Assembly (NCBI GenBank): GCA_938004065.1
Contig: CALKWM010000038.1
Location: 66,466 to 130,465, forward strand
Source of the DNA: an uncultured bacterium
GTDB lineage: Bacteria; Patescibacteriota; JAHJAL01
Direction: 5' to 3'
DNA: 64,000 nucleotides
Part shown: positions 11,689 to 63,707 of the stretch, piece by piece
Numbering within the stretch: position 1 is the stretch's first letter
Layout of the letters: every line of letters begins with the position of its first letter
Program-made: the position numbers and the translations under genes
Notes under the pieces: generated by a model
Database searches by the model: none
What the model was told of the DNA's origin: nothing
What the model saw: the letters and a program-made list of their open reading frames with translations, nothing else

Positions 11689-11848
11689 GGTTTTTATGGG
11701 AAAAAACATTTTTTACATTTATGTCATGAAATGGCTTATTGGGTGGGGGTTTTGGGGTGAGTTCAAAAAACCCTGAAATAGTTTTTCAGAGTTTTTTGCT
11801 ATGTAAACAAAATGAACAACGATTGGAGAGAAAAATGTAAAGTACCAA

Positions 11849-11901
11849 GATCCTGAATCGCTCGAGTATTCGCTTCGCTCATCTCGGGTTCAGGATGACA
11901 A
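11849..11901 (+). repeat. palindromic intergenic element, copy A (GATCCTGAA-N36-TTCAGGATGACAA)
   Basis: 8-bp outer stem ATCCTGAA/TTCAGGAT, an inner CTCGAG..CTCGGG stem (one G-U pair) and a conserved 3' GATGACAA tail. Lies between the 11950..19683 stop and the 1077..11621 promoter. Confidence 0.6.
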
Positions 11902-11949
11902 TAGTCTGTGATTTACTTGGAGATTGGATATTGGTACTTGGAAATTAAC

Positions 11950-15400: not shown

Positions 15401-18400
15401 TCGTTATAGAAAGTACGGGAGGATAATGTATTACCGCCGAATACATAATTAGCCTGGACTCCATTGATACCATTATTGTCAACTGTGTTTTGTCCTAGAA
15501 ACTCGACTCCAGTATTATCAGCAGAACTTGTTAAGTAGATAGCCGCACTGCCGTTATTGTTAAAATTGGCGTTGCTTATGATCGGATTCGCGCGATACAG
15601 ATATATCCCCTGATCCTGGCTGTATTCAAAAATACAGTTATTAAAAGTCGGTTCCACTTCTCCATAGTTATTGTGATCAATAATATAAACATTGCCATAA
15701 ATGTCTCCACCACCATAACGGAAAGTAGTATAGTCGATCGTTCCAGTGGCTTCTCCGGACTGAGCCTCAAAAGATAATTGATACCAGTCGCCTTTGGCCG
15801 GTAGAGTGGCCGAACCATTGTTGTTAGTGTCACAGGGCTTGTGTTCGATACAATTACCTTCGCTGTCAAACCATTCCGGATGAGTGGAAAAGCCGACTGT
15901 ATCATCTTTGAGAGAGGTAAAATAAACTCGATTTTCCGCTGTCCCCTGACTCAACAGATTGCCATCAATTTGCATTTTGCTATTTGAAGCAAATTTAATA
16001 ATCGTACCTTCTTCTAGGGTTAAATTGACAGAGTCACCCACGAACGGGTAGCTGGCACCTTCGATGATATATGGATAATCATTGGTAAAAGTGGTATCGT
16101 CCCACATTGTTCGAACGTAGTAATTGGGAGTGATACGAATGCCATTGGTGCCACAGTTTTCGATCACGTTTGAACCATCAAGAAGAATATTGGTACGATA
16201 TGGGCCATAGAACTGGATGGCGTCACCGCCCATGTTTTTTATGGTTACATTGGTAGCATTAACGAATACCCGGTCCAAGTACATTCCATCACCACTACCA
16301 TTGATAATTGTTACATGATCAAAGTTTGGATTTTGCTTGTTGTAACTTTCGTGATCATAAAAACGTACAGCATAATTGGCGCTGTATCTGATTTCAGCAT
16401 TATAAATATTGCCCATGCCTTGATAGCTGGCGTTACTACCGCTGAAAAATATAGCGCCATCATAGTTTCCCCATACACCGGGAGTTGGTTGGGTAGTAAA
16501 CCCATCTCGACCGGTGTCGCCGTCGGGAGTTGAGTCGTCATAGATGTGAGTAAAAATCACCGGTCTAGCGTCGGCACCGGTCGGATCGCCAACATTGAGG
16601 GTGCCTTGTACAATTAAACCTTCGCCATTGTTGGCGGTTTCGATGTGTTTTACAATAGTGCCGGGTTGAATAGTGAGGGTATTTCCGGCGGGAACCGTTG
16701 GTTGATTGTCGATACAAACCACGGCTACATCGCCATAATCATCATCCGGTGGCCAGGTGCCGGATACACTTCCGCCCACATAAGTATAATCACACCCCGG
16801 ATCATTACCGCCGGCCGGTCCACAGACGGTACTGCCAGTATCGGAAGCGACATCGGTGGCGCCACCGGGCAATGAACTGGGATCGGTGCAGCGGTCGGAA
16901 TAAGCCATATTCAAGCCGTTTTCGTCAGTCCAGGTGTAGTAACCATCACAGGTATCGTCAATCACCAGATCGGGATTAAATTTATTGGAATAGGAAGCGG
17001 CCCGGGTGCGGACGATTTCATTGTCTAGATTATTGAACATCTTGGACGTCTTGAGATAACCATTAGCTCCCATCATAAACCCCGTTGATGTATGAGCGGA
17101 AATCGGGTCACGGGGGTTCCAGATTGTAAATAAATCATTATCAAATAACTGCCACTCAGCATCGTTTCGATATTCATTATGACCGGCAAACCGGTCGATA
17201 TATTGTCCTTTGCTGTAAGACAAATCAAGATTATAACGAGCGAACCAAACTTGATCTTCGGTTGGTATCTCGGGAACAGGCGTAGTCAAGACATTTCGTG
17301 CTCCGTTGCGGATATCGCTCATGTATATGTAGCTGTTGTCTGCATAAATCTCCAAATCGGTGGCGTTGATAAAAGCACTACAGTTGGGAGTATGTTCACA
17401 TAATTCCGCCGAGTAGGTTTCAATCCGAGATTGAGAATAATTTGATCCACTTGTTTGGACCTTCCCCAGATAAATATCCGGTCCCGGGGGATAATTGGTG
17501 TTACCATTAAAATCGATAGTAGAGGGCATCACACTTTTGTTTTTGAAAATTGTATATATCCAACCATTATCAATATAAAAATTGTGTTCCATGTTGACGT
17601 AATTTGTTGCAATAAATGTTTGTTGAGCACTAGAAACTGCAGACCAGTTATTGTTGCCTAAGTCAGTCGTAGCCCAGTACAAAACATCATTTCTTGTCCC
17701 GCCAACCCAGATATGATAAACCTTGCTTTCTGATGGTATCACTTGCACATAACTGGCTTCGCCAACACCAGCGCCGGTGAGTGAACGAACATAATTTGTG
17801 AAAACCCGATTGGTAGAGGACAAAGTGGCTGTGGAAATATCATATACGGCGGTGACGTGGTTTTGGGTTTGACCCTGCCGCCAGGAAAGATAAATTTTAT
17901 TGTTATAATAATCCGATCGTAGCATTTGTACATCATTGCTGGTGGTTTGCTGGGTGTTTATAAAAGTACCTTCCGGATCCGAAATATCGGCACTGCCGAT
18001 CCAGACATTGCCGCTGGTGTAATTATTGGTTGCCGAATTATGTACAAAATAAAGCTTGTCGCCGATTTTGAACATATTGGACAAAAGGCCGGCGTAAGAG
18101 CTGGAAAGATTGTACGGTTCCCACGTACCGGCCGAATCCGCCGTACCGGAAAAACCATCAGCATAGCTGTAACTAACTGTGTATTCGGTGTTACCTTCCA
18201 AACCGCCTACTGTGAGTGGCGGCGACCAGTCGGAATAGGTTTGGTAATATGGATCTTCGCCGAGTGTTAGATCGGGCTGGACATAAGCGACAGCATTATC
18301 TTTTGTATTAATAAATTTCAAAGCATAGGTGGTTTGCAAGGGGTCTTGATCTTCTTCCGAGAAATCAATTGTTAGATTGGTACAATCTGAACTGGTGATG

Positions 18401-19683
18401 TTCAGAAAGGGTGGGGTTTCTTCGATAGGTAGTCCTCCGGGTTCTTCCGTATTAGGAACTGCATCACCCATTAGCAGATTGGTACAAAAAGTGTGTTGCG
18501 TGGTGCTACCATACCATTTGCTCATGCCAATACGACTTCCTGTGGGAATGTTATAAGGTGGCAGGGTATTGTAGTCAGTACAAGTTACACCTATTGCTCC
18601 GAAACGCTCCTCTCCGATAACACCAAAAAATTCATCATTAGTTGATTGAGTTTTCACGCTAAATGTACCGCATCCGATATTGACATATGAATAATAACCC
18701 GAGGAATTGGTGCTGGCAGTATGTGTAAATGATCCGCTTCCGGAACAACCAGAAGCACTAATTATGACATCTGCGTCCTCAATAGGTTGGCCAGTATTGT
18801 GATCATAAATATATCCCGCTAATCTAATTAGTCCGTATGACACTCCGGCCGTTGGATCGAAAACCACCGGATAATCGGCCTGGGATAGAAATTTTTCATC
18901 AAGCTGATAGATGATTTGTCTGTCATTGTTAATTAGTTCGTATTTAACTTGAGAGAAGTTACCTTTGCGATCTACGAGGGTGGCGGGAGATATTTTCCAG
19001 GAGATGTTTTCCACATTTTGGTTGAAGATAATATCAATACTACCATCCGGCTGAGGTGAAAGTTCACTGTCGCTTGGATAATCTAATTGAAATGCCAAAT
19101 TCGAGAAATCCGGTTTACGGTCAAATATAATCGATTCTTTAATGCGATCATCGTCCAAACGGTACTGTACGGTTATGCTATTGTCAGTTTCGTATAATAC
19201 ATAATCATTTTGAGAAAAGATATCATGAATCTTGTAGTCCGGTTGAATCAAAGACATGGTCAGGAAATTTTGGGGATCGTTTTTCATGGTTAATGAGGTG
19301 GTGATATGGTCCTCTAAGAGATAACTTTCAGTAATAAAATGATCGTTCTCAGCTTTTTGAACGGTGGTATCGGCAAATAAATTCCAAATACTTTTTTCTC
19401 GAGAAGATTTGACAAAAGGATGATTATTTTTCAAATCCTGACTTTGGCTTTTAATTTTGTTTACAGATGTAACAGCGTCAATCAGTTCATCTAACAATAC
19501 ATCTGATGTTGCATTTAAAGTTAGATCACTTTCAGAATTGACACGGTCATCATTAACAATCAGTATATTAGTTTCTCTGGTGTTTATTTTGAAGATGATT
19601 ACAATTATTGATAGTAATACCAGTATCGCCACCGGCCACACTTGTTTGATCATATCCAATCTATTTTTGTTTTGGTTGTTCAT
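11950..19683 (-). CDS. giant secreted beta-helix-rich surface protein (2577 aa) with WxL-like C-terminal module
   Basis: 7.7-kb ORF. N-terminal signal anchor [18 protein letters not shown] CarboxypepD_reg-like segment ([21 protein letters not shown]...[13 protein letters not shown]). The N-domain motif is [10 protein letters not shown]. At least 5 tandem right-handed beta-helix modules, each carrying P[VI].FTS..DDS.GGDTN.DG.AT.PA.GDW ... F.YGG. An Asp-box module ([10 protein letters not shown]...[10 protein letters not shown]). A C-terminal ~330 aa homologous to the C-terminus of 19768..30987, ending [17 protein letters not shown]. Confidence 0.9.
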
Positions 19684-31000: not shown

Positions 31001-32230
31001 TTAACTTTTTTTCTCTATCAACAATGTGTAAGCGAATTGATTATATTCATCATTTTTTATTTCCAAGCCATTACTATTTAACATTTGCCATGTGAATTCA
31101 TTGTTTTGCATCAAGCCATTCAGTGATTGTGTCATGTTGGTTTTATCAAGATCCTGATAAGATAAGGGGAAAATGTAAGCCTTTCCTTTATCTCTCAAGA
31201 CCCGTAATATCTCCGCGAAACTATGATCATATTGTTCTTTATTCATCCGATGAAAAAGATGAGCTGATATGGACCACGAAGCGACAAATCGGTCAAAACT
31301 ACTGTCTTTAAAAGGTAGTTCAGGAAACATGGCCTGCAACACATGCGATTTTTCCGTTCTCTTTTTCATTCGGTGATTATCAATCATCGGTCGGATTAGT
31401 TTATCGATTATTTCTTGTTTTTCTATCTGATCCAGCTTTTTACCAGACTTTTTTTCAAGTAATTGAATCTTATTTTCCAATTTAGGTTTTAATTCCTCTT
31501 CGTAGAAAACTAGATCGGAGAAAAGGTTGGCTCCTCGTTTAGCTAAATACCAAAAATCTTTGAGATCACGTTTTATTACATCTGTTATTTCAGGAACATT
31601 TTCTTCTTCCGGAACGTATGGTTTGTAACTATTGTAAAACTCCGCAATTCCATCCCATGCTCGACTAGCATCTAAAAATTTCTTTTTGTTTTTCAATACT
31701 GAATTCGATTGCATGGCTTCCTGTGATAATTCAATTGCATTTTCTAAATATGGCTGAATCATTTCAATCCATTCAACATAATAATATTCTCCTTCATTTT
31801 GGCAGGGAAAAATCTCTTTTGGATCGAAACCATCGGCTAATTTTTGGTAATATTCTCTAATGTTATCCTCAAAAATTTGCACTTGTTGATCAGCTATATT
31901 ATGAAAACCACCTGGTTCGTAAAAATTTTCCATCTTGTGACCTTCAAAACCAGCTGTTTCGCCAAACTCATAATCAATCGTTGTAAAATTGGGATTATCA
32001 AAATATCTACCCATTACCTGGTAAGGATCGCCAACATACAGAATTTTTCCTTCTTCGGGGAACAACTCCTCAACTTCAATACCCGTTTCTTCTTCCAGTC
32101 TTTCCGGTGTCCTCCCGGTCAACGCTTTTTCTTGTCGGTCATAAATACTTATTATTTCAATAATTTCCCGGGGAACGGACCCCAGAGTATCTTTTTCTGA
32201 TAAATTGTTTTTTGTTTCTAAATTACTCAT
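31001..32230 (-). CDS. hypothetical cytoplasmic protein (409 aa), probably co-transcribed with the downstream giant gene; degenerate class-I methyltransferase-like motifs
   Basis: ORF with no signal peptide. The 13-bp gap to the start of 19768..30987 leaves no room for a promoter. The C-terminal region QAMFPELPFKDSSFDRFVASWSISAHLFH......ILRVLRDKGKAYIF fits class-I MTase motifs II/III (gDae.LPF.D.sFD.V.s...l.H ... RVLKPGG.l.i). A weak motif-I-like ILYVGDPYQ lies ~230 aa upstream. Product assignment is speculative. Confidence 0.6.
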   Translation of the reverse strand: MSNLETKNNLSEKDTLGSVPREIIEIISIYDRQEKALTGRTPERLEEETGIEVEELFPEEGKILYVGDPYQVMGRYFDNPNFTTIDYEFGETAGFEGHKMENFYEPGGFHNIADQQVQIFEDNIREYYQKLADGFDPKEIFPCQNEGEYYYVEWIEMIQPYLENAIELSQEAMQSNSVLKNKKKFLDASRAWDGIAEFYNSYKPYVPEEENVPEITDVIKRDLKDFWYLAKRGANLFSDLVFYEEELKPKLENKIQLLEKKSGKKLDQIEKQEIIDKLIRPMIDNHRMKKRTEKSHVLQAMFPELPFKDSSFDRFVASWSISAHLFHRMNKEQYDHSFAEILRVLRDKGKAYIFPLSYQDLDKTNMTQSLNGLMQNNEFTWQMLNSNGLEIKNDEYNQFAYTLLIEKKS

Positions 32231-32255: not shown

Positions 32256-32306
32256 TTATTTTCTGGATCCTGGATATCGAAGCGGTCAAGTGGACTTTCG
32301 CTTCCA
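32256..32306 (+). repeat. palindromic intergenic element, copy B (GGATCCTGGA-N27-TTCCAGGATGACAA)
   Basis: Outer stem GGATCCTGGA/TCCAGGAT(C). Inner stem GAAGCG-gtcaagtggacttt-CGCTTC. Lies 26-76 bp upstream of the ATG of 31001..32230 and downstream of the 32390..50551 stop. Confidence 0.6.
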
Positions 32307-32389
32307 GGATGACAACACTATTATTTATTATTTATTGTTTATTTTTTGTGCTCTTTCTAGTAATTAGTCATTGGTAATTCGTAATTATA

Positions 32390-52271: not shown

Positions 52272-53525
52272 TTATCTATGTGTATTATTTTGCATCAACC
52301 ATTTCCAGATAGGTTTTACATAAATTGTTTGGCGATTAATTTTTATCACATCATCATCATATCTGGTCAAAATCAGACCGGTTTTCAATTTGTAAGTATT
52401 CATAGCATCCAACAGTCCATTTATTTCTCTAGATTCATTTTTGCCATCAATTTTCTGTGTTACTTGAATTGCGGCAGTGATTGTATTTTTCTCTTTTATC
52501 ACAAAATCGCATTCATGTTTGTCTGAATGATAATATATTTCTTTGTTTCTTCTTTTTAATTCCAGAAATGTAATATTTTCCAATAATCGTCCGATGTTTT
52601 TGGAGAACGAAAAAGAAACCGCATTGATTAAACCGGTATCGATGCTGTAGATTTTTTTATTGTTGATAATTTGTTTTTTGACCGAATAATCATATTTACT
52701 TATTAGAAAATACAGATACGAACTTTCCAAGAATTCAAAATAGTTTTTAACAGTCGAAACACTTTGAAACTTCAAGATCTTGGCCAAGTTATTATAACTT
52801 ATCAAAGTCGAAGGATTGGATAAAATATACAAAGATAATTCGCGGAATGATTGGACATCCTTGATCTGATAACGGACAATAATATCTTTGATAAGTATAT
52901 CTTGATAAAGTTGTTTCAATTCATCACTATCACGACTTTGCACAACTTCCGGGAAACCTCCCAATAGTAAATACCGGTCAAATAACTTGTTTATTTGTGA
53001 TTTTTCTTTGGTGGTATAGATCTTTTTATTTTGAAAATCATGGTATTGCAAATACTCCAGCCAGCTAAATGGATATAATTCGATTTTTTGATGGCGACCG
53101 GTTAGCGATGTTGACAATTCAGAGGACAATAATTTCGCGCTACTGCCGGTTACAAAAACTTTATAACCATCACCATACAAACGACTGACAAATTTTTCCC
53201 ATCCGACAATGTTTTGGATTTCATCAAAGAAAAAAACAGAGTGATGATCATAAAGTGTAAAAAATATTTCCAAAAGGTTGTTAAAATCTTCAACTTGAAA
53301 ATCCAACAATCTTTCATCTTCAAAATTCAAATAGTAATATCCCGGGTAACGGTTTTTCAATTGCTTCAATAAGGTTGATTTACCGCATCGCCTGACACCA
53401 ACAATAGCGGTGATTTTGGAACTTTTGATAATTTTTTCAGAAACTTTTCTCTCGATAAACTGGTGTTTCTTTTCAAAACCGGATTTTTGGTCCACTACTA
53501 TTTCCTTGAGTTGGTTTTTATCCAT
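52272..53525 (-). CDS. AAA+ ATPase of the AAA_14/DUF4143 family
   Basis: 417 aa. Walker A IVGVRRCGKSTLL and Walker B/DE VFFFDEIQ. The C-terminal DUF4143-like region is typical of the COG1373 ATPase family. Confidence 0.8.
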   Translation of the reverse strand: MDKNQLKEIVVDQKSGFEKKHQFIERKVSEKIIKSSKITAIVGVRRCGKSTLLKQLKNRYPGYYYLNFEDERLLDFQVEDFNNLLEIFFTLYDHHSVFFFDEIQNIVGWEKFVSRLYGDGYKVFVTGSSAKLLSSELSTSLTGRHQKIELYPFSWLEYLQYHDFQNKKIYTTKEKSQINKLFDRYLLLGGFPEVVQSRDSDELKQLYQDILIKDIIVRYQIKDVQSFRELSLYILSNPSTLISYNNLAKILKFQSVSTVKNYFEFLESSYLYFLISKYDYSVKKQIINNKKIYSIDTGLINAVSFSFSKNIGRLLENITFLELKRRNKEIYYHSDKHECDFVIKEKNTITAAIQVTQKIDGKNESREINGLLDAMNTYKLKTGLILTRYDDDVIKINRQTIYVKPIWKWLMQNNTHR

Positions 53526-53779
53526 TTAGAATGTATATTAATAATATTATTTATACATTACTATTGTATATTATTTGATACTACTTGGCAAGAGTAGTCT
53601 TAGACTACAAGTTTTTTATACCAGACATGATCACCATAGTAACGAGATTGATTCAAATCATTCCCTGTGTAATTTTGGTTTCGGGTCGCTTTGCCCGTCA
53701 TCGATTGGCCAGTGTTCATAGGTTTCGAGCTGGTGAGGTGGTTGGTTTTCCAATGATGGGGGCATGGAATTTGAAAAAT

Positions 53780-54829
53780 TTAAAAATAATTATTGACCGC
53801 GAATTCAAATTGTTTGATGAACAGCTCCTTGAAATATCTTGCGCTATTTTGTTCATAAAACAAAATCATCGCTTTCTTGTATTCGACTTCATCAATTGTC
53901 CTAAGCGACATCGGACATAAGTCATTGGCCAGCATCATGGCATTACCTATCAACCTAGATGTTCTCTTGTTGCCATCTTCAAATGGTTGAGTATAGGCAA
54001 TAAATAAAATGGATAAGAATGCTTGCGAAAATGGATCTGATATTCGATTAATTTTTTTAATCATTCTAATGAGTGTTTCTTTGATCTGATACATGTTACT
54101 TAGCGGTTGATAATTGGTGCCGACGATTCTCACCAATTTTTGGCGCAAACCGGATTTGACATTTAGTTCTTTGGTCAGTAACTTGTGAATGTGTTCGATT
54201 AAGTTAAGTTTTAATTTTTTGAATTTTATCCGATTGGCTATAATGTATTCCAAAGCGTTTTTGTGATTGAGTATCATAATCGCCTCTTCCCTGGTGTGTC
54301 CGGTGGCTTCTTTTTTTTCTTTGATGAGAATTTCGGTATCGATTAATGTATATGTATTGCCCTCAATCCGGGATGATTTCCAACTTAGTTCAATCAACCA
54401 ACGCTCCAGTTCTTTTTGGTAAGCGGTCTTAGTCATGTTCTTTATCTTGCGTTGATAAACTTGGTTTAGTTTGGTTAAATGATATAATTCGTCTTTGCTA
54501 AAAACATTATCTATCCAATCCAAAACAGCAAAGTTAAAATGAATGACCTGATCCGACCTTTCGTCCTGTTCCTGAGAAAAGTAATCTTCTACCGGATAAT
54601 ACTTGAGCAAGGGATTGATTAATTTTTCAACATAAACCAGACTGCGGCCGGAACCTTGTTTCTGGATTAAATTATTTTGCAGCAATACTTCAATATCGCG
54701 GACAATGGTAACACGGGAAATCTCGCCAAATCTGGCTGCAATTTTAGGTTTTATCTCGCGATTGGATATATGACCGGATTGACGGATGAGATTCAAAATA
54801 TATATTTGTCTTTTAGTCAATTTGGTCAT
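53780..54829 (-). CDS. Fic/DOC family protein with N-terminal winged-HTH; Fic motif degenerate (QPFEDGNKRTSR)
   Basis: 349 aa. The N-terminal RQIYILNLIRQSGHISNREI...RVTIVRDIEVLL region is HTH-like. The C-terminal core has ...LSILFIAYTQPFEDGNKRTSRLIGNAMMLAN in place of the canonical H.F.[DE]GNGR..R. Confidence 0.8.
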   Translation of the reverse strand: MTKLTKRQIYILNLIRQSGHISNREIKPKIAARFGEISRVTIVRDIEVLLQNNLIQKQGSGRSLVYVEKLINPLLKYYPVEDYFSQEQDERSDQVIHFNFAVLDWIDNVFSKDELYHLTKLNQVYQRKIKNMTKTAYQKELERWLIELSWKSSRIEGNTYTLIDTEILIKEKKEATGHTREEAIMILNHKNALEYIIANRIKFKKLKLNLIEHIHKLLTKELNVKSGLRQKLVRIVGTNYQPLSNMYQIKETLIRMIKKINRISDPFSQAFLSILFIAYTQPFEDGNKRTSRLIGNAMMLANDLCPMSLRTIDEVEYKKAMILFYEQNSARYFKELFIKQFEFAVNNYF

Positions 54830-54965
54830 TTTTTTATTGTTTCATGATATTATTCTAATTGTATCATTTTGTAACAATTAGTAAATACCCCTGAAGTAAA
54901 AAGATTAGGAGCAATCCATCTTAATTTCTGTCAATTTTACTACAGATAGGAGAAAAGTTAAAGGG

Positions 54966-55086
54966 AAAGGGAAAAAGAATAAAGAAAGCTTAAAGACCCC
55001 CGCCCAAGGCGGGTCTCCTCCAAAGGCGGACAAGCGCCTCGGGCGGAAAAGATTAAGATTTTGATACTCTCACCGCGGAACGGGAA
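54966..55086. repeat. 115-bp direct repeat, copy 1 (identical to 57732..57846); GC-rich hairpin plus T-rich tail in minus-strand orientation
   Basis: 54972..55086 is base-for-base identical to 57732..57846, with 5 more flanking bases at 1 mismatch. Contains GACCCCCGCCcaaGGCGGGTC and AGGCGGacaaGCGCCtcgGGCGG hairpins. Overlaps the last 11 codons and stop of 55053..55775. Confidence 0.85.
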
Positions 55087-55775
55087 CCAAAGTCGCCAAT
55101 CTGAAGGACGGGATCGTTCCTGCTCAAGTCGGCTCGCCGACCGCTCTGGTACCAGTAGGCATAGCCGACATTGCCGGACGCGGGAAACCAGGTGGCGAGC
55201 AAGTAACAACCTTTGCCGTGACCTTGGTAATCATCGATCACTTGATTGGTTTTGGTGAGGTGAGTGACAAAGCGAACAAGCCAGTCTTCGTGGGTGAGGC
55301 CGGATTCGTGTTGGTAAGGAGAATCGGGTAATTTGTCTTTGAAAGTTTGGAGATATTTATTTGGTTTTTGATTGGCAGTGAGTTGGGGACGATCACCGAT
55401 GGTTTGGCCTTGGCCTTTGGCCGGAATATTGATGTTGTCTTCGAAGAGCTTGAGTTCCCAACCCAGGCAGGGGTCGTTGGTTTGGATTTGTTGTTTGATA
55501 ATATCAGCTTTGGTTTGGCCGCCATGTTTTTGAGTCTCGGTTTCATCCTCTGTTTTGATGAATGCCTGGGGATAGTAAAAGATGGCATTGGGGTCGTAGT
55601 AGCCTGATTTATCATCTGCTCCCCAGACCCAGAGGGGTTGGGAAGTGTCAAGTGTGAGGGGGACGAGTGCTTCCGCGGGATCGGCGGGATCTTTTTTGGC
55701 GGTAAAGAGTTTTTTAGCTTCATGATGTTTCAAAATTTGTGTTTTGGCAATTTCAGCCAGATTGGGAATAGACAT
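55053..55775 (-). CDS. hypothetical protein; C-terminal 240-aa segment of a probably disrupted gene
   Basis: ORF as called in the track. Protein-like translation continues in-frame upstream of the ATG at 55775 without an obvious start codon. The last ~11 codons and the stop are supplied by the 115-bp repeat. Confidence 0.55.
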   Translation of the reverse strand: MSIPNLAEIAKTQILKHHEAKKLFTAKKDPADPAEALVPLTLDTSQPLWVWGADDKSGYYDPNAIFYYPQAFIKTEDETETQKHGGQTKADIIKQQIQTNDPCLGWELKLFEDNINIPAKGQGQTIGDRPQLTANQKPNKYLQTFKDKLPDSPYQHESGLTHEDWLVRFVTHLTKTNQVIDDYQGHGKGCYLLATWFPASGNVGYAYWYQSGRRADLSRNDPVLQIGDFGSRSAVRVSKS

Positions 55776-56270
55776 GGCGAAGGGAGTTAGTTGGAGGCGG
55801 GTGAAGCCCTGAGAAGTTTTGTAGTTGATCTTTTCTTTGTTTTCTTTGAGTCGTTGTTTGACAGCTTCAAAGGTGGGAAAGGGATATTCCCGAGGTTGAT
55901 CGGGATGATCAGGATCAAGGCCATTGATACCGAGTTGGCCGGTGCTTAATTTCTTTAGTATCCCGATTTTAGTGAAGATCTCTTTTTGTGATTCGTATTG
56001 TTCCTTGACCGAGGCGAGGGAGAGATGTTCAAAGGGCCAGAGATGATTCTCTAATTATACAGTTTCTCGCTCCAGTTTGGTTTTGACTTTCCAGGCGGAT
56101 TGCAAGAGAGGACGAACCGAGGGGTCGCTTAGGTCGGGTGAGAGGGTTTTAGCTTTATCGAGCAGATCGCACATGAGTTTTTGCGACTCTTTGATACGAT
56201 CCAGGTCGCGGGTGAGTGTTTCGCATGATGGTTTGGTGGTTGATGGGGGTTGTTTTAAATTTGAGGGCAT
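55053..56270 (-). pseudogene. possible disrupted gene: 71-aa ORF (56055..56270), an in-frame TAA, then ~93 start-less codons and the 240-aa ORF
   Basis: Track coordinates place ATG 56270 and ATG 55775 in the same frame (495 nt apart), with the stop at 56055..56057 between them. My manual translation of 55776..56054 gives continuous protein-like sequence (...LGINGLDPDHPDQPREYPFPTFEAVKQRLKENKEKINYKTSQGFTRLQLTPFA|MSIPNL). A +/-1 uncertainty remains in my hand count of this stretch, so frameshift versus nonsense cannot be decided here. Confidence 0.35.
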
Positions 56271-56344
56271 AGGTAGTTATTATTAGCTTTTGAGTAATAC
56301 CAGAGGATGAATATAACTATATTAAGAAATCACAAAAGAGCAAC

Positions 56345-57478
56345 TTATTGAACATCCAAAAACTTTAAATAGTTTTTCGTATTGATTATTTGAATTTTTG
56401 CTTCCGGATACGTAACCTGGAATTCTCGGGAAAATTTCTTTTTATCTGGTGAATATTTGAATTCGTATGCATACAGATTGCCGTTTCTTTCCTCTATCCA
56501 GTCAACTTCTTGTTGGTCCCATGTACGCCAGAAATAGTTATTGCTAATTATTTGGGAATATTTTTGACATTTAATACGTTCGGTTACTAGAAAATTTTCC
56601 CATAGTTGACCTATATCGTTTCTAATTTCCAGAGGGTTGAAATTGGCAATTATTGCATTTCGAATTCCATTATCATAAAAATAATATTTGCTCTTTTTAG
56701 TAATCTCTTTGCGAAGGTTTTTTGAATACCCTCTCAGATTGTAAATAATAAATGACTTTTCCAAAAGATCCAGATATCGTTTGACTGTTTTATAATCCAG
56801 TCCTACTTGCCCACCCAATTCGGTCAGCGAAACTTCGTTACCAACTTGATATGCAATCAGACGAAGTAAATCAAGAAGTAATTTGGGTGACCTGACTTTG
56901 TCAAGTTCCAAGATATCTTTGAACAAGTAGGAGTTAGTGATTTCCTCCAGAGTACTGACTTTCTCACTATTGTCAGGCGCTGTGATGACAGCGGGATAAC
57001 TACCAAAGACAAGTATTTCATTGAGTTTTTGTTTTAGTTCAAAATGATTGTACAATCCAGCTAGCTCCATCTGGGAAACCGGATACATGATGAGGGTTTT
57101 TTTACGCCCGGTTAGTGGCTCTCCTACTTGTCCGGCCAATTCAAATGACGATGAGCCGGTGGCGATAATTTTGATATCGGGAATATTGTCCACCAATATC
57201 TTGAGACCAATGCCGATAGCGGGTATTCTTTGGGCTTCATCAATAACTATTAGATCGTATCCGGAGGCATATTCTTTGATTTTGGTAAAATCTTCGGAGT
57301 TAAGCACTTGTCTGGTAGAGATATTGTCACCAGAATCAAATTTGTGTTTTAAGTCTGTTTGAGAGAGAAAATCTTGCAACAGGGTTGTCTTGCCAACCTG
57401 CCTGGAGCCATATATGACTAAAACCTTGTTGGGAACAAGATAAGTGCTTAAGTCTTGGTATTTTCTTGGTATTTTCAT
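56345..57478 (-). CDS. AAA+ ATPase of the AAA_14/DUF4143 family (second, divergent copy)
   Basis: 377 aa. Walker A IYGSRQVGKTTLL and Walker B LIVIDEAQ. The C-terminal DUF4143-like region is present. Divergent paralog of 52272..53525. Confidence 0.8.
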   Translation of the reverse strand: MKIPRKYQDLSTYLVPNKVLVIYGSRQVGKTTLLQDFLSQTDLKHKFDSGDNISTRQVLNSEDFTKIKEYASGYDLIVIDEAQRIPAIGIGLKILVDNIPDIKIIATGSSSFELAGQVGEPLTGRKKTLIMYPVSQMELAGLYNHFELKQKLNEILVFGSYPAVITAPDNSEKVSTLEEITNSYLFKDILELDKVRSPKLLLDLLRLIAYQVGNEVSLTELGGQVGLDYKTVKRYLDLLEKSFIIYNLRGYSKNLRKEITKKSKYYFYDNGIRNAIIANFNPLEIRNDIGQLWENFLVTERIKCQKYSQIISNNYFWRTWDQQEVDWIEERNGNLYAYEFKYSPDKKKFSREFQVTYPEAKIQIINTKNYLKFLDVQ

Positions 57479-57911: not shown

Positions 57912-59045
57912 TCAAGAATTGATAATTGTCTCCACCCATTCCCCCGTCTTGAGCATTCCCTTTAGCTCTTCGATAGCGGTAAATGGCACCGGGTCATGGC
58001 CCAGCAAGAAAGCCAGATAGACGCTGACGTAATCACCTAAAATCACGCCTTTGCAGATACCGCCGGTATAATTGTCATTATCGATTTCGTAGATACTGAT
58101 ATCAAATCCTTGTTTTGAAAATGTTTCCCGGATAATATCGGATCGTTTAAAATTGCGGGGATGATATAAATTGCTTTTGAGGATTAGGATATTGATCGTT
58201 TTTTTTAATTCCGTCGAGCATTCCAAACCTTGTTGAGCGTTATGGTTAAGCTCGGGGATTTCTTCGAAATATGAAGGAATTTTGGTATTTTCGTTGAATT
58301 CCCCTTTCCACCGCCTGGCAACCACAGATAAATGTTCGGCGCCAAATACGACGGGGATGGAGTTGACTAAACCGGAGGCGATGTGCTTGGCAAGATTATT
58401 GTCATGATTTAATTCTTCATGGTATAGATTAACGGCCTGATTCATAACATCGATAGCTTCGAGCAGATTAATATCAGATGAATTTAAAACTCCTTGTTTG
58501 ATCAACAATTCCAAAACTACAAAGAACGAGTGTCCCCAGGCGGTACGAGGGGGCATATTGGGTGGCAAAATAAAATATTGATCGTTATTTTCTTTGGCCA
58601 ATTCAATCAACTTGCCACCGGAGCCGAGACAAAATATTTGCGCTCCTTTGGTGCGAGCTTGAACGTAACCGGAAAGGGTTTCTTCGGTATTGCCGGAATA
58701 GCTAATGACGATGGCGAGAGTTTTTTCGTCCACCCAGTTGGGTAGATTGTAATCGCGGACGATTTGAATTGGTAGTTGTGAGTATTTTTCAATTAAGAAT
58801 TTGGCCATGTCAGCACCGATGGCCGATCCGCCCATGGCACAAACGATTATTTTGTCGAAATTCATTGATTGTGATTCTTGGGCTGTGAATTGTTCCCAAA
58901 CTTTTTGGATTTGATTGGGGGTATCTTTGAGAATTGGCAAATACCCCGATGGATCAGCTTTTTTAATCTCTTCGATGTTGTTTAGGTCGAGCATAGGTCT
59001 AAAAAATTTAATAATAAATAAATTGATTGTTTTTATTGCTTGCAC
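57912..59045 (-). CDS. bifunctional phosphoglucose/phosphomannose isomerase (SIS-domain, archaeal-type PGI/PMI)
   Basis: 377 aa. SIS-domain signatures IIVCAMGGSAIGAD and LAIVISYSGNTEET. The C-terminal half is typical of the bifunctional PGI/PMI family. The true start may be the internal Met (MLDLNNIEE). Confidence 0.75.
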   Translation of the reverse strand: MQAIKTINLFIIKFFRPMLDLNNIEEIKKADPSGYLPILKDTPNQIQKVWEQFTAQESQSMNFDKIIVCAMGGSAIGADMAKFLIEKYSQLPIQIVRDYNLPNWVDEKTLAIVISYSGNTEETLSGYVQARTKGAQIFCLGSGGKLIELAKENNDQYFILPPNMPPRTAWGHSFFVVLELLIKQGVLNSSDINLLEAIDVMNQAVNLYHEELNHDNNLAKHIASGLVNSIPVVFGAEHLSVVARRWKGEFNENTKIPSYFEEIPELNHNAQQGLECSTELKKTINILILKSNLYHPRNFKRSDIIRETFSKQGFDISIYEIDNDNYTGGICKGVILGDYVSVYLAFLLGHDPVPFTAIEELKGMLKTGEWVETIINS

Positions 59046-59082
59046 AAAAGACGAATAATATTCAGTAAGAAAAGGTTAAATT

Positions 59083-59217
59083 ATGAGTAGTGCTAAATAA
59101 AAATAAAAAATATGGTATGGATCCCCGATATCGAATCGCCCGCCTCCACCGATTCGGCGGATCGGCGGACTTTCGATTCGAGGATGACAGATAAGAAAAT
59201 TAATTAGCACTACTCAT
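59083..59217. repeat. 135-bp composite palindrome: 14-bp perfect inverted repeats ATGAGTAGTGCTAA / TTAGCACTACTCAT flanking element C (MITE-like)
   Basis: 59083..59096 is the exact reverse complement of 59204..59217. Element C sits symmetrically inside with 22- and 13-bp spacers. Confidence 0.6.
59119..59190 (+). repeat. palindromic intergenic element, copy C (GGATCCCCGA-N48-TTCGAGGATGACAG) with extra GC-rich inner hairpin
   Basis: Outer stem with one mismatch. Inner stem ATCGAA...TTCGAT encloses CCGCC...GGCGG hairpins. Lies in the divergent pgi/lipoprotein intergenic region. Confidence 0.55.
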
Positions 59218-59421
59218 TAAATTTTTAAATTGTGAAAATAAATTTTGCAATGCGACCATTTGGCCATCTAATAATTTATGTACCGCCTCTACTGCTAGGT
59301 CATATTCTTATCTAAAAAAATGGGATAATTTATCTAACTTTTTCATTCCTCCTTTATTTTATCGCGTACAAAAAATATAATAAAGTAAGTGTGATTTATT
59401 ACAAATTTTTAGAACAGATTT

Positions 59422-60186
59422 ATGGTCCATAAACTAAAACTATCGCTCTGGTTAATACCGGTATTGTTTTTTACGGGATGCATCAACAATCAGGTCAATC
59501 CGAATATCGCTCAAATTGATCAACAAGCATTAACATTGCGAAATCATATTTACGAGATTAGCGGTGATGATGGTTATTATCAGAACGAAAATATTGACTT
59601 TGCGTTGATTAAAAGGGTCAAAGATAGTGTCGGAGAAAATTTAAAAAACATTTTGGTAGCGTATAACGATCAAAAGTTGGAATATGATATTTATCAAGAG
59701 GGATTGGATAAATCCATCAGTTTGATGTATTTTTGTTGGATAGAACAAGCCGATGCAGCGAGGAGAAATAACGATTTGGAAAATTTAAATTTTATCCGGG
59801 AAGAAGAGTCGGATTTTTCGAGACAAGAAGCAATCCAAAAATGGATCGATGAAAATGAAAAGGGGGAATACTATGAAAAAATTGAGAATTATTTTTCGTT
59901 GGTTCCGGAGTTAATATCCAAGGGAAGCGAAATCGATGCAAACAACCAAAAACTGAATGAATTGAAAACGCAAGCGGAAGGTTTGCAGGTTGATGGCAAC
60001 ATAGTGGAATACAATCTGGTGGCCGATGAATACAATGCTTTGCTGGAACAAAACAATCAAATGATAGATGAATACAATACCCAGTTGGAAGAGATTGATT
60101 ACGAAAATGTATTTAATAATTTTATGAAATTCATCGACGTATCTTACATTTTTCCCGGACAAGACACAATTCCGTTAGCAAAGTAA
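59422..60186 (+). CDS. putative lipoprotein (hypothetical)
   Basis: 254 aa. Signal peptide with lipobox (LIPVLFFTG|C). Acidic and coiled. Faint LemA-like C-terminal resemblance, not confirmed. Confidence 0.6.
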   Translation: MVHKLKLSLWLIPVLFFTGCINNQVNPNIAQIDQQALTLRNHIYEISGDDGYYQNENIDFALIKRVKDSVGENLKNILVAYNDQKLEYDIYQEGLDKSISLMYFCWIEQADAARRNNDLENLNFIREEESDFSRQEAIQKWIDENEKGEYYEKIENYFSLVPELISKGSEIDANNQKLNELKTQAEGLQVDGNIVEYNLVADEYNALLEQNNQMIDEYNTQLEEIDYENVFNNFMKFIDVSYIFPGQDTIPLAK

Positions 60187-60228
60187 AATTGATACAATAT
60201 TAACTTGAAAAAAATATAAGCAAATCTT

Positions 60229-61482
60229 GTGTTTAACGCGATAAAAATTAATTTGCATTTACCAAATAAAAATAACCTAATTTATACTATGTATAAAAAC
60301 TTTTTGAAGATATTGTTCATAGCAATCTTTGGAACAATCTTGAATACAGGTTTTATTCATGCCAAGCAAGATCTTTATGATGTGTCTGTCTTTACCGCCG
60401 ATAGTTGCGGGCACTGCCAAGATCTAGAAGAATGGCTAAATACAAAACCGGAAATAAAAGTAAAATACTATAACCTCGCCGAAAAAGAAAATGTTGAGCT
60501 GTTTGTAGAGTTTACCGACAAATTTGAAGTAGCCAAAGTTACTCCGATAATTTTAGCGGGAGACAAAGTAATCGAGGGATTCGGGTCGGCACAAACTACC
60601 GGCGGGCAGATTTTGGAGCTGGTTAGCCAAGGGCAAAAGAACAGTTTCGAAAACTTTCTGGCGGAAAATACCAGTTTAAATGATGACGGTGATAATAGTG
60701 CTTGCGATATTGGTGAACGGTGTAGCGAAGGTGAGGGACTGGTGTTTGACGTCCCATTTTTTGGACAAGTCGATTTTTCCGCGTATTCCATGCCCAGTTT
60801 ATCTCTGATTTTTGGTTTTATCGATGGTTTTAACCCATGTGCAATGTGGGTTTTGATAATGTTTATAACTATGATTGCTCAAGCTAAAAGCAAAAGAAAG
60901 ATGTGGGATCTGGTGTTTGTATTTATGATTGCGGAAGCGGTTATGTATTTTGCGATTTTAAATTTATGGTTTTCCACTTGGAATTTTGTGCAACTGGATC
61001 AATATGTAACACCAATAATCGGTTTGGTATCAATCGGTGCCGGCGGATTTTTTCTGTGGGAATACCTGACCACCAAAGCCGGTGAGTGCAAGATTATCAA
61101 TGAGAAAACTCGCATGAGCACCACCAATCGAATAACTCAACTGGTCAATTCTCCACTTTCGATTGCTACATTTTTGGGGACGATCGGGATAGCTTTTTCG
61201 GTCAACGTGGTGGAATTTGCCTGCAGTATCGGCATCCCGCAAGCATTTACCAAAATTTTAGACATCAATGATTACAGTTTCTGGTTGCGGGAATTTTATA
61301 TCGCGCTTTACACCATGGCCTATATGGCTGATGATGTTATCGTTTTTGTAATAGTAATCTATGCTATCTCGTATTTGGCGCTTACAACCAAGTATTCCAA
61401 ATACTGCCAATTGATTGGCGGATTACTGATGCTGCTGCTTGGTGGCATCATGATTTATGATCCGACCTTGCTAAAGTTCTAA
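60229..61482 (+). CDS. thioredoxin-fold CxxC domain fused to a DsbD/CcdA-family transmembrane thiol-disulfide transporter
   Basis: The track ORF starts at GTG 60229. A likelier ATG at 60289 gives signal peptide MYKNFLKILFIAIFGTILNTGFIHA. Periplasmic CGHC thioredoxin motif (FTADSCGHCQDLEEW). A multi-TM domain follows with Cys in two TM helices (GFNPCAMWVLIMF; EFACSIGIP), as in DsbD_2/CcdA. Confidence 0.7.
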   Translation: MFNAIKINLHLPNKNNLIYTMYKNFLKILFIAIFGTILNTGFIHAKQDLYDVSVFTADSCGHCQDLEEWLNTKPEIKVKYYNLAEKENVELFVEFTDKFEVAKVTPIILAGDKVIEGFGSAQTTGGQILELVSQGQKNSFENFLAENTSLNDDGDNSACDIGERCSEGEGLVFDVPFFGQVDFSAYSMPSLSLIFGFIDGFNPCAMWVLIMFITMIAQAKSKRKMWDLVFVFMIAEAVMYFAILNLWFSTWNFVQLDQYVTPIIGLVSIGAGGFFLWEYLTTKAGECKIINEKTRMSTTNRITQLVNSPLSIATFLGTIGIAFSVNVVEFACSIGIPQAFTKILDINDYSFWLREFYIALYTMAYMADDVIVFVIVIYAISYLALTTKYSKYCQLIGGLLMLLLGGIMIYDPTLLKF

Positions 61483-61494
61483 GTTAATAATTTT

Positions 61495-61632
61495 TTGTCA
61501 TCCTGAACCCGAGATGAGTTCGCCGAATAGGCGGATGAATACTCGAGCGATTCAGGATCTATGGACAAAAAATTTTTTATAGATCCTGAATAGCTTGAAG
61601 CGCCTAAAGGGCTTTCAGGTTCAGGATGACAA
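61495..61632. repeat. head-to-head pair of the palindromic element (copies D1 reverse and D2 forward) flanking an A6T6 palindrome; likely bidirectional terminator between convergent genes
   Basis: D1 61495..61559 is TTGTCATCCTGAA...TTCAGGATC, the reverse complement of the copy-A organisation. The centre is caaAAAAATTTTTTat. D2 61582..61632 is AGATCCTGAA...TTCAGGTTCAGGATGACAA. The pair sits 13 bp after the stop of 60229..61482 and ends 4 bp before the stop of 61636..62082. Confidence 0.6.
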
Positions 61633-61635
61633 GTC

Positions 61636-62082
61636 TTAGCAATAGATACAATTCAACGCATCCAAACATAATACTCTGACATTGTCCAATAAAAATGTGG
61701 ATGCTTCCAATTCTTCCGCGGAATACCAGTGATAATTTTTTTGTTCATCTTCAGGGATGCAAAGCTGGTCGGTATCACTCCGAGCATAAAAAACCAGATC
61801 GATGTGCTGATGTCCCGGCTGGATGTCTTCCAACAAGATATGAGCGGGACGGGTAAGTTGTCTGGCATCAGATAGATCCATATTGATATCCGGATCGTAG
61901 ATTTCGACATCGAGACCGGATTCTTCTTTGACTTCTCTTAGAGCGGCAGTGGTGGGCAGTTCATCTCGTTCGATATGGCCGCCAACCGGTAACCAGGTAT
62001 TCAATTTTTTATGAAGATGCAGTAAGACTTTTTGATTGTAAACGATGATGGTGGTGGCAGTATAATGACGAGTTGTTTCCAT
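61636..62082 (-). CDS. NUDIX hydrolase
   Basis: 148 aa with a canonical Nudix box: GGHIERDELPTTAALREVKEESGL (G.5E.7REUXEEXGU). Confidence 0.88.
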   Translation of the reverse strand: METTRHYTATTIIVYNQKVLLHLHKKLNTWLPVGGHIERDELPTTAALREVKEESGLDVEIYDPDINMDLSDARQLTRPAHILLEDIQPGHQHIDLVFYARSDTDQLCIPEDEQKNYHWYSAEELEASTFLLDNVRVLCLDALNCIYC

Positions 62083-62193
62083 ATTTTATTTGTAAAAAAA
62101 TAAGTAATTAGTTTTATATTAGCATAGTTGTTAATAATATAAAAAAATCCCGTTTATTAAAAACTGTGGGATTTTAAGATTTTCATAACAAAA

Positions 62194-62979
62194 TTATTTT
62201 TCCAGTAGTATTTCCAGCGCAACCCTATACAACTCTTCACGAGTTTGTTGCCGGTATTGCTGACGTGCCATGTGAGTTGTGTCTTCAACTTTTTCGAAAT
62301 TGGCTAGATCTTCACAGATTTGCAACACAACCACGGCCGGAACTTCAAAGTGGTTGGAAACGGCCAATACTGTTGACCCCTCCATTTCCACTCCAAAGTA
62401 TCCTGTTTTTTGCCAACTTTGGATATCAGTCATGCTTTCACCTAGCATTGCCTGACATGTAGTGGTGGAGCCATTATTTATTTTATATCTTGTAAGTTTT
62501 TGAGTGAATTTTTCGATCAGTTCTTGAGAGGCGCGATGTTGATGAGCGAGAGCGCAACGGGGATTTTTTTCCTGGTATATGCGCGTGGTACTCTCATTGC
62601 CCCAAATAACATCGGGGATGATCAGTTCGTCCGGTTTGATATCGGGATGCAGATTGCCGCAGCTTCCCAATAAAATATTTTTTTGACTGCCAAACAAACA
62701 AGCCAGATGAACGTTTTCCGATAATCTGGTACCGCCGTAAGCGACGTTATACCAGTAAGTCTTATGGTCAAATTTAAATTCAATAATACTATCTAAGAAT
62801 CTTTCCAGTCTTCTGGTGCTTTTTTTGGGTATTTTAAATTTTTTGATAGCTTGAAAAAATATTTTTTCCTGTTTTTGGGAGTAAAAACTACCAAAGTTTA
62901 AAAAACCATCAATACAATAATTCGATGGGAGATGGAATTTTTGTCGCCAGTCATCGACCGTCATTTCATAATAATACAT
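62194..62979 (-). CDS. nucleoside phosphorylase family protein (PNP_UDP_1; MTA/SAH-nucleosidase or PNP-like)
   Basis: 261 aa. Phosphorylase-family motifs are present: YGGTRLSE, GSCGNL and GVEMEGSTVLAV. Confidence 0.7.
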   Translation of the reverse strand: MYYYEMTVDDWRQKFHLPSNYCIDGFLNFGSFYSQKQEKIFFQAIKKFKIPKKSTRRLERFLDSIIEFKFDHKTYWYNVAYGGTRLSENVHLACLFGSQKNILLGSCGNLHPDIKPDELIIPDVIWGNESTTRIYQEKNPRCALAHQHRASQELIEKFTQKLTRYKINNGSTTTCQAMLGESMTDIQSWQKTGYFGVEMEGSTVLAVSNHFEVPAVVVLQICEDLANFEKVEDTTHMARQQYRQQTREELYRVALEILLEK

Positions 62980-63083
62980 TTATTTGTCACATCCTTTTTT
63001 AAAGATCGCAATATGTCTACGTGCTTGTTTTGTATCATCTTTAAGCTGTTCCCGTCAATATTGTTTGGTGGTAAAATCTAGTT

Positions 63084-63707
63084 ATGAAAGATATATATCA
63101 ACAATTGCATATAGTCGATGGCAACAGGCATACTGCACTATCTCGCGAAGAGGGAGAGTTTTTGTATCGATTTGTCAGAGACAGAAAATTTATCAAGACG
63201 TTGGAGATTGGTCTGGCGTATGGTGTTTCGACAGCATACATAATGACGGCGACAAATTCCATTCATTACGCTATCGATCCGTTTCAAAATAGCGAGAAAT
63301 ATGATCGTGCCGGATTAAAAAATATCGAAAAGTTGGGACTCAAGAAAAATTTGAAATATATTGAAGACTTTTCATGTCTGGCTTTGCCAAGTTTGTGTAA
63401 CAAAAATTTTAAATTTGAATTTGTTTTTGTTGATGGCAGTCATAAATTTGACGATCAATTTGTTGATTTTTATTTTATAGATTTGCTACTGGCCGTCGAG
63501 GGTGTGGTTATATTTCATGATGTGTGGACTCCGCAAGTTAGGACTTTGTTGTCCTGGATAGAGACAAACAAAAAGTGTTATCATAAAGTCGATATAGAAA
63601 ACGAAAGTTTTGTGATTATAGAAAAAATTAAAAATGATGACAGGAAATGGTTTGATTTTAAAAGGTTTGCAGTTACAGTGGATGGCAATGTAAGTCGCTA
63701 TATGTAG
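63084..63707 (+). CDS. class I SAM-dependent methyltransferase (Methyltransf_24-like)
   Basis: 207 aa. Motif I-like TLEIGLAYGVSTAYI. VFVDGSHKFDDQFVDF resembles cephalosporin-hydroxylase-like/O-MTase family 3 members. Confidence 0.7.
   Translation: MKDIYQQLHIVDGNRHTALSREEGEFLYRFVRDRKFIKTLEIGLAYGVSTAYIMTATNSIHYAIDPFQNSEKYDRAGLKNIEKLGLKKNLKYIEDFSCLALPSLCNKNFKFEFVFVDGSHKFDDQFVDFYFIDLLLAVEGVVIFHDVWTPQVRTLLSWIETNKKCYHKVDIENESFVIIEKIKNDDRKWFDFKRFAVTVDGNVSRYM

Follow-up and report, generated by a model that had tools for sequence, protein, structure and literature searches.

Intergenic palindromes of a probable Patescibacteria genome as candidate Ssn-related DNA hairpins with a CCTGAA stem

The five palindromic elements present in the window (the whole stretch of 64,000 nucleotides analyzed here), together with a sixth copy on the same contig, are best explained as Ssn-related motifs (SRMs; NTS-like repeats), that is, as intergenic DNA hairpins recognized on one strand, as single-stranded DNA, by a small GIY-YIG nuclease of the Ssn type (cd10448). 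We put the probability of this reading at roughly 0.8. Judged by their nucleotide sequence, the window copies appear to represent a CCTGAA-stem subtype that carries a second hairpin in its loop of 27-50 nt. The class itself was published in 2025, and the copies extend it modestly: they have a CCTGAA stem and compound loops, occur in a Patescibacteria host, and escape the published search string. The original prediction had not recognized the family, the architecture of which is that of the NTS and the Ssn-related motifs (Chenal et al., 2025; PMC11893778). An unrecognized repeat is hereby assigned to a class with a known biochemical partner, and the assignment is therefore directly testable.

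The palindromic elements and their surroundings

Four giant open reading frames (ORFs) on the minus strand (1077-50551), coding for proteins of 3514, 2577, 3739, and 6053 amino acids, take up 77% of the window, and their run is broken only by a methyltransferase-like ORF of 409 codons at 31001-32230. Three of the giant ORFs gave many hits to Laminin_G_3, two of them also to DUF2341, and Toxin_R_bind_N occurs as well; the 2577-aa ORF gave only a faint Beta_helix hit. Presumably, the giant ORFs encode surface proteins. Among the other genes of the window are those for enolase, a bacterial-type PGI, AAA_14/DUF4143 ATPases, and Fic and NUDIX proteins; no tRNA gene was found in the window. The closest named relatives of the enolase, at 75% identity, belong to the Patescibacteria group.

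There are exactly five occurrences of the 9-mer AGGATGACA in the window (11892+, 32306+, 59181+, 61496-, and 61623+), compared with 0.47 expected from dinucleotide shuffles, and none of 100 shuffles reached five. In each instance, GATCC precedes the 9-mer by 35-56 nt. When we searched with TGTCATCCTGAA and allowed up to two mismatches, seven further matches were found against 6.55 expected; since this is the chance level, five is the full count within the window. Folding as single-stranded DNA gave a common 8-bp outer stem, ATCCTGAA/TTCAGGAT, in all five copies (as ATCCTGGA/TCCAGGAT in copy 2 and, with one G-T pair, as ATCCCCGA/TCGAGGAT in copy 3), and further pairing within the 27-50-nt loop of each. 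Read on the other strand, every copy has the form T-GTC-ATCCTGAA-(27-50-nt loop)-TTCAGGAT-C-Y. All five lie between ORFs, in gaps that make up only about 6-7% of the window. The elements are listed below with the strand on which they are read in this way.

Copy 1: 11849..11901, minus strand; TTGTCATCCTGAA-(31-nt loop)-TTCAGGATC-T; outer arms at 11850-11857 and 11889-11896.
Copy 2: 32265..32315, minus strand; TTGTCATCCTGGA-(28-nt loop)-TCCAGGATC-C; outer arms at 32267-32274 and 32303-32310.
Copy 3: 59119..59190, minus strand; CTGTCATCCTCGA-(49-nt GC-rich nested hairpin)-TCGGGGATC-C; outer arms at 59121-59128 and 59178-59185.
Copy 4: 61496..61560, plus strand; TGTCATCCTGAA-(43-nt loop)-TTCAGGATC-T; outer arms at 61500-61507 and 61551-61558.
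Copy 5: 61581..61632, minus strand; TTGTCATCCTGAA-(29-nt loop)-TTCAGGATC-T; outer arms at 61583-61590 and 61620-61627.
Copy 6: about 18800-18890 of locus L123, on the same contig about 8.8 kb past the end of the window; TCTGTCATCCTCGA-caagaaagtgaaacgcttcttg-ATCGGGGATCCAT.

These data bear out the original prediction of a true repeat family with five folding copies and an inner stem in each. They also confirm the locations it had given, namely after giant-gene stops, 5' of the ORF at 31001-32230, in the divergent pgi region, and as a pair that fills the gap between two convergent genes. Copy 2 is really situated about 9 nt away from the position assigned to it before (32256-32306). Of the tail GATGACA(A/G), which had been placed outside the stem, only GACA(A/G) is unpaired, whereas GAT belongs to the stem.

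The loop of copy 1 contains an inner hairpin, CCCGAG..CTCGAG, and GCGAAGC; this copy lies 49 nt past the stop codon of the 2577-aa gene and 228 nt ahead of the start of the 3514-aa gene. Copy 2, with the inner stem GAAGCG/CGCTTC, is flanked by the stop codon of the 6053-aa gene (32390) on one side and by the start codon of the methyltransferase-like ORF (32230) on the other, and lies 36 nt upstream of the latter. Copy 3 occupies the divergent region between pgi (57912-59045, minus strand) and the ORF at 59422-60186 (plus strand). Copy 4 follows the stop of the ORF at 60229-61482 (plus strand) by 14 nt, and copy 5 lies 4 nt past the stop of the NUDIX gene (61636-62082, minus strand); between these two convergent genes they form an inverted pair with their GATC ends facing each other. 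Copy 6 is likewise located between two convergent genes.

Copies 1 and 4 share the outermost 23 nt on either side without a difference; only the central insert sets them apart, copy 4 possessing the outer loop part of copy 1 plus an additional CGCC/GGCG hairpin; this identity points to a recent common origin. Copies 3 and 6 have the same type of ends. The 22-mer GTCATCCTGAACCCGAGATGAG, which is specific to copies 1 and 4, had no match in a metagenome scan. The sequences flanking copy 4, AATAATTTTTTGTC and GACAAAAAATTTTT (61486-61499 vs. 61564-61577), are 93% complementary, as are those flanking copy 1, AAGTACCAAGATCC and GGATATTGGTACTT (11840-11853 vs. 11926-11939), so that the potential structure reaches beyond the element in both cases. 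Downstream of copy 4, the sequence GACAAAAAATT looks like a duplicated tail.

Relation to the NTS and the Ssn-related motifs

Chenal et al. (2025; Nat Commun 16:2388) defined the Neisseria NTS, CGTCATTCCCGCGMAVGCGGGAATCYRG, and the wider group of Ssn-related motifs. The NTS is an oriented subset of the dRS3 repeats of Neisseria meningitidis, and the nuclease concerned is SsnA. It follows the frame CGTC-ATTCCCGCG-MAVG-CGGGAAT-C-YRG, in which a GTCAT box and a palindrome are followed by a C. The ssnA gene encodes a 94-aa, single-domain GIY-YIG protein (cd10448) and is flanked by hairpins in many phyla. SsnA binds the hairpin only as single-stranded DNA (not as double-stranded DNA, as RNA, or in the form of the opposite strand), holds on to the stem plus the following C, and cuts a few nucleotides upstream of the hairpin; a hairpin rebuilt from two separate oligonucleotides is still cut. 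Mutagenesis revealed that the C just past the palindrome is most needed for binding and the three bases before the palindrome are most needed for cleavage; the SsnA residues that were mutated are Y6, Y17, and E64. Evidence for binding and cutting has been published for the Neisseria and Wolbachia pairs (Chenal et al., 2025).

The elements of the window are built in the same manner, as oriented hairpins with a 5' (C/T)GTCAT, a palindromic stem, and then ATC-Y, and they too are intergenic and present in multiple copies. The box reads T-GTC-A-T in all five window copies and in the sixth copy, and the palindrome is followed in all five by C and a pyrimidine (T, C, C, T, and T in copies 1-5). The conserved bases that stay unpaired are those needed by SsnA for binding and cleavage. 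The view that the conserved tail outside the stem is a protein-recognition feature has held up. Read on the other strand, this tail is the GTC box that cleavage requires (Chenal et al., 2025), and the leading G of the (G)GATCC consensus given earlier corresponds to the C on which binding depends most. In other genomes, the hairpin flanks a single-domain GIY-YIG gene of about 94 codons on both sides. The window elements differ from the NTS in their stem (ATCCTGAA vs. ATTCCCGC), in their loop (27-50 nt with a nested hairpin vs. 3-5 nt), and in their host, a probable member of the Patescibacteria and not of the Pseudomonadati. A further difference is that our search of 84 kb of this genome (the window plus 10 kb beyond each end) gave no GIY-YIG or ssn ORF.

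The published SRM search string, HGTCWYN(0-2)YYVSBRHN(0-5)WNVSBRGN(0-2)RNCYNB, matched none of the five copies, because the string demands V at the third stem base and a loop of 0-5 nt, whereas the copies have T at that base and loops of 27-50 nt. Having been built from 29 genomes (Chenal et al., 2025), this string is a search heuristic and not a definition. Its two matches in the window (16032-16062 on the plus strand and 60535-60565 on the minus strand; 0.09 expected in a first-order Markov simulation) probably reflect chance; both are coding and non-palindromic, and hence the string alone is not specific. Literature searches with the literal element sequences returned only unrelated primers.

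Hairpins, stem covariation, and the partner gene in other genomes

We scanned one genome per species with the pattern GATCCTGRA-N20-50-TYCAGGATGACA and obtained at least 119 loci; by our own estimate (20 specified positions, 31 gap lengths, 596 Gb), about 30 chance matches are expected over the whole collection, and four matches within coding sequence (loci L006, L039, L071, and L104) look like such chance hits. The CCTGAA hairpin was found at least 268 times, in at least 110 of these at least 119 loci. Its basic unit is a 26-nt hairpin, GATCCTGAA-WCAAG-TTCAGGATGACA, usually with a loop of 5 nt. Hosts among the matches listed comprise many lineages of the Patescibacteria, Gastranaerophilales/Vampirovibrio (Melainabacteria), Treponema, Flavobacteriaceae and other Bacteroidota, Alpha- and Gammaproteobacteria MAGs, Armatimonadota, Nitrospirota, and one Bathyarchaeia MAG. 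The 26-nt core is nearly base-identical across more than 10 phyla and also occurs in phage contigs: 32 IMG/VR viral contigs (L129-L160) carry the simple hairpin, several of them two to four times, often a few nucleotides ahead of the ribosome-binding site of an ATG start. These 32 viral loci yielded no Ssn-like GIY-YIG ORF. Among the loci listed, 326 of 362 collapsed elements (90%) are intergenic, and three elaborations of the basic unit can be distinguished: a GC-rich second hairpin in the loop, as in the window, tandem arrays of the tail-side half, and stacked 5' halves. The Bathyarchaeia-binned contig (L047, 5933-6000) carries a CCTGAA hairpin with a duplicated tail; either the element does occur, if rarely, in archaea, or the contig was misbinned.

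The relation of the CCTGAA stem to the stems of the published class was assessed in the fetched loci by listing all GTCAY-hairpins whose stem has 7 bp or more without a mismatch. This gave 507 hairpins among the loci listed; the arm ATCCTGAA accounts for 268 (110 loci), ATGCTGAA for 46, and ATTCTGAA for 19, and other frequent arms are ATTCCGGx, ATGCCGGA, ACCCCGGA, and ATCCCGAA. The sister hairpins keep GTCAT, the CTTG loop, and ATC, and their stems differ by paired substitutions (ATTCCGGA, ATCCCGGA, ATCCCGAA, ATCCTGAA, ATGCTGAA, and more); the exact Neisseria core, GTCATTCCCGCGAAAGCGGGAAT, is present among them. In sequence terms, the arms appear to form a stepwise series linked by paired substitutions. 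None of the 268 hairpins with the ATCCTGAA arm among the loci listed matches the SRM string.

Since this list required pairing, we also conducted a test that relied on the anchors alone (GTC-N8-CTTGN-N8-C), in which pairing was not demanded and CCTGA arms were excluded. At least seven of the eight possible pairs were present at 72 of 98 sites, with 21 different arms from 30 of the loci listed, and almost none of the controls slid by 1-3 nt were paired. In an alignment of 60 distinct hairpins, seven of the eight stem pairs vary on both sides; these hairpins had been selected for pairing, and only the diversity of their pair types therefore counts as evidence. The stem covaries across the family. 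Of 288 CCTG-type hairpins elsewhere, among the loci listed, 250 have a T directly ahead of GTCAT. Among the 219 sister hairpins with a non-ATCCTG arm in the loci listed, 84% have a C directly after the palindrome; this tally is confined to such arms, as our search pattern fixed the ATCCTG arm and the following C.

A small ORF between hairpins at one array-bearing locus served as the seed for a jackhmmer search over the loci and the window. It recovered none in the window and nine full-length relatives among the loci listed, proteins of 91-105 aa that consist of a GIY-YIG domain only (PF01541, E-values of 1e-15 to 1e-19), and at eight of these nine loci hairpins are present within 300 nt on both sides of the gene. 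In the typical layout, GTCATCCTGAACTTGATTCAGGATC ends just ahead of the start codon and the inverted copy, GATCCTGAAWCAAGTTCAGGATGAC, begins just past the stop codon. Tyr7, Tyr18, and Glu65 of the 94-aa protein from a Moranbacteria genome (L072) align, with an offset of one, with the SsnA residues Y6, Y17, and E64. This family of small GIY-YIG proteins is abundant in the Patescibacteria, and Ssn-type genes accompanied by long-loop CCTGAA hairpins exist in that group (L044 and L072). A comparison of the neighboring GIY-YIG proteins with NCBIfam gave only a sub-threshold match to a GIY-YIG intron endonuclease, and a sequence search of the PDB returned no Ssn structure.

Complete hairpins are often accompanied by half-site arrays of 2-7 units, in which the GTCAT-side half, TTCAGGATGACA, is combined with a private, repeated spacer of 3-15 nt (L095, 1470-1590; L049, 745-860; L022, 6880-7010; L014, 7180-8000; L121, 2590-3250; L074, 5600-5680); stacked copies of the other, non-GTCAT half are present at L096. 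Because the spacers themselves are repeated, the arrays are true tandem duplications. They may have arisen at Ssn sites through cleavage and repair or through slippage. We considered a Tn7- or IS21-like reading, in which the arrays would be transposase-binding sites ending in TGT, and rejected it because the spacers are repeated too and the flanked gene codes for a GIY-YIG nuclease. We found no description of such arrays, and the word "tandem" is absent from the main text of the study that defined the SRMs (Chenal et al., 2025).

In long-loop hairpins from four phyla (L004, L038, L040, L050, L061, L083, L100, and L122), a short stem contains an inner loop module, TGAGCG-N3-4-YCGAA. The loop of copy 1 (11862-11888) carries this module as GA-TGAGCGAAGCGAA-TAC. 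Its presence in four phyla indicates that the compound form is a recurrent design and not a random insertion. The CTGAA-stem hairpins could constitute a distinct SRM subclass, the compound forms of which might record a GIY-YIG single-stranded DNA nuclease copying its own target by a hypothetical, transposition-like mechanism for SRM-ssn-SRM units; we regard this suggestion, which derives mainly from loci outside the window, as speculative. The published motif does not capture the CTGAA-stem hairpins, and we found no description of them in the main text of that report (Chenal et al., 2025).

Alternative readings, proposed mechanism, and gain of the copies

Short intergenic hairpins can act in transcripts; in Escherichia coli, REPs sometimes serve as factor-independent terminators or as stabilizers of 3' ends. 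Were the window elements of this kind, as implied by the structured regulatory RNA of the original prediction, the tail would be a site for an RNase or another protein on the RNA. Their hairpins are stable, copies 1, 2, 4, and 5 are located 4-76 nt past a stop codon with the GUCAU strand sense to that gene, and the convergent pair supplies each gene with its own hairpin. However, no T-run follows any of the copies (the tails are CTTGG, CAGAA, CATAC, TATGG, and TATAA), no terminator-like call was obtained at copies 3, 4, and 5 in the scanned span (58900-63200), and an Rfam scan, proposed earlier as a check, gave no match at the gathering score in the whole window and none at E-values of up to 1 in the region that contains three copies (59050-61700). 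Moreover, the orientation of the 362 elements among the loci listed is near random with respect to the neighboring gene (88 same vs. 66 opposite at 3' ends; 85 vs. 87 at 5' ends), and in viral contigs the hairpin has the other orientation and usually directly precedes a start codon. Those bases that are conserved but unpaired are the very ones needed by a nuclease that acts on single-stranded DNA only and does not bind RNA (Chenal et al., 2025). We consequently view a primary function at the RNA level as improbable; a secondary, co-opted role of the hairpins in RNA is possible. A hammerhead, a twister, a C/D box, and a k-turn were likewise considered and dismissed, since CUGAA is fully base-paired with UUCAG and the conserved positions coincide with the contact bases of Ssn.

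The hairpins might also be orphans, spread by an Ssn-type element that has since been lost and now inert or merely recombinogenic. The lack of an ssn gene in the 84 kb examined, the long and diverse loops, which do not resemble the form found beside most ssn genes, and the finding that about 19% of SRM-rich genomes have no detectable Ssn homolog (Chenal et al., 2025) speak for such relics. Yet the identity of copies 1 and 4 over 23 + 23 outer nucleotides and the common ends of copies 3 and 6 suggest recent spread, and none of the six copies has lost GTC or the 3' C. The search for ssn covered a fraction of the genome, and there are ssn genes with long-loop CCTGAA hairpins in other Patescibacteria. 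On balance, we think it rather unlikely that the copies are mere relics, though this is the least improbable of the alternatives discussed here.

The REP elements associated with RAYT proteins carry the box GTAG. As short intergenic palindromes with an oriented conserved flank, which sometimes form REPIN-like inverted pairs, the window elements could be taken for hairpins mobilized by a Y1 (HUH) transposase of the REP/RAYT or IS200/IS605 type, or for MITEs of a DDE transposon. The REP resemblance noted in the original prediction is real; like REPs and REPINs, the elements occur as singletons, inverted pairs, and clusters, and such hairpins would be recognized as single-stranded DNA by the product of a dedicated small nuclease gene that they flank elsewhere. 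The partner gene seen in other genomes codes for a small GIY-YIG nuclease, however, and not for the HUH/Y1-type RAYT/TnpA(REP) protein, and the conserved box is GTCAT instead of GTAG. The genes of the window and its flanks contain no Y1_Tnp or other transposase domain, and the flanks of the five copies contain neither a target-site duplication nor a common direct repeat. The subterminal hairpins of IS200/IS605 elements resemble the elements under study in their one-strand reading, in the offset of cleavage from the hairpin, and in the layout of a gene between two hairpins; in contrast to them, TnpA and TnpB are missing here, the ssn hairpins are inverted copies of one sequence and not distinct left and right ends, and transposition is only hypothetical for Ssn. 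A transposase-based origin of either type is, in our judgment, very improbable.

Under the assignment to the Ssn-related motifs, the following mechanism can be envisaged. The arms of an element would pair when the DNA becomes single-stranded during uptake, replication, or transcription, on the minus strand for copies 1, 2, 3, and 5 and on the plus strand for copy 4. An Ssn-type nuclease would then bind at the base of the stem and the C next to it and nick the DNA upstream of GTC. A long loop should not prevent this, given that the hairpin assembled from two oligonucleotides is a substrate (Chenal et al., 2025). We infer that the organism represented by the window encodes a cognate Ssn protein and that the long-loop copies are bound and cut by it. 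The copies would have spread within the lineage in the manner of REPs, and cleavage of single-stranded DNA, either incoming or replicative, and local recombination would be the likely consequences.

Taken alone, the window is ordinary, with a few repeats, selfish or domesticated, between its genes. The assignment of these repeats extends the Ssn-type hairpins to the Patescibacteria. Members of this group depend on DNA uptake, and a nuclease that cuts marked single-stranded DNA could hence shape their gene flow. Furthermore, neither the long-loop forms nor a very widespread type of stem are captured by the published SRM string, and counts of SRM-bearing genomes are therefore probably underestimates.

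Two syntenic relatives of the window region (L126 and L128), with enolases 77-78% identical to that of the window, possess the gene order YlxR, methyltransferase, two unknown genes, pgi, enolase, and giant gene; the 6053-aa gene beside the enolase gene is present in them as well. We found no CCTGAA-type hairpin at the homologous intergenic sites or elsewhere in the 21-kb loci of these two relatives, which indicates that the copies are gains in the lineage of the window. This lineage-specific presence parallels the situation in Neisseria, where the number of NTS varies from species to species (Chenal et al., 2025). Two blocks of genes are also missing from the syntenic regions of the relatives. 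One, at 52272-57478 between the enolase gene and pgi, comprises AAA_14/DUF4143, Fic, a 240-aa ORF, a called 71-aa ORF, and a further AAA_14/DUF4143 gene, and no hairpin edges it; the other, consisting of NUDIX and PNP_UDP_1 (61636-62979), is bordered on one side by the inverted hairpin pair of copies 4 and 5.
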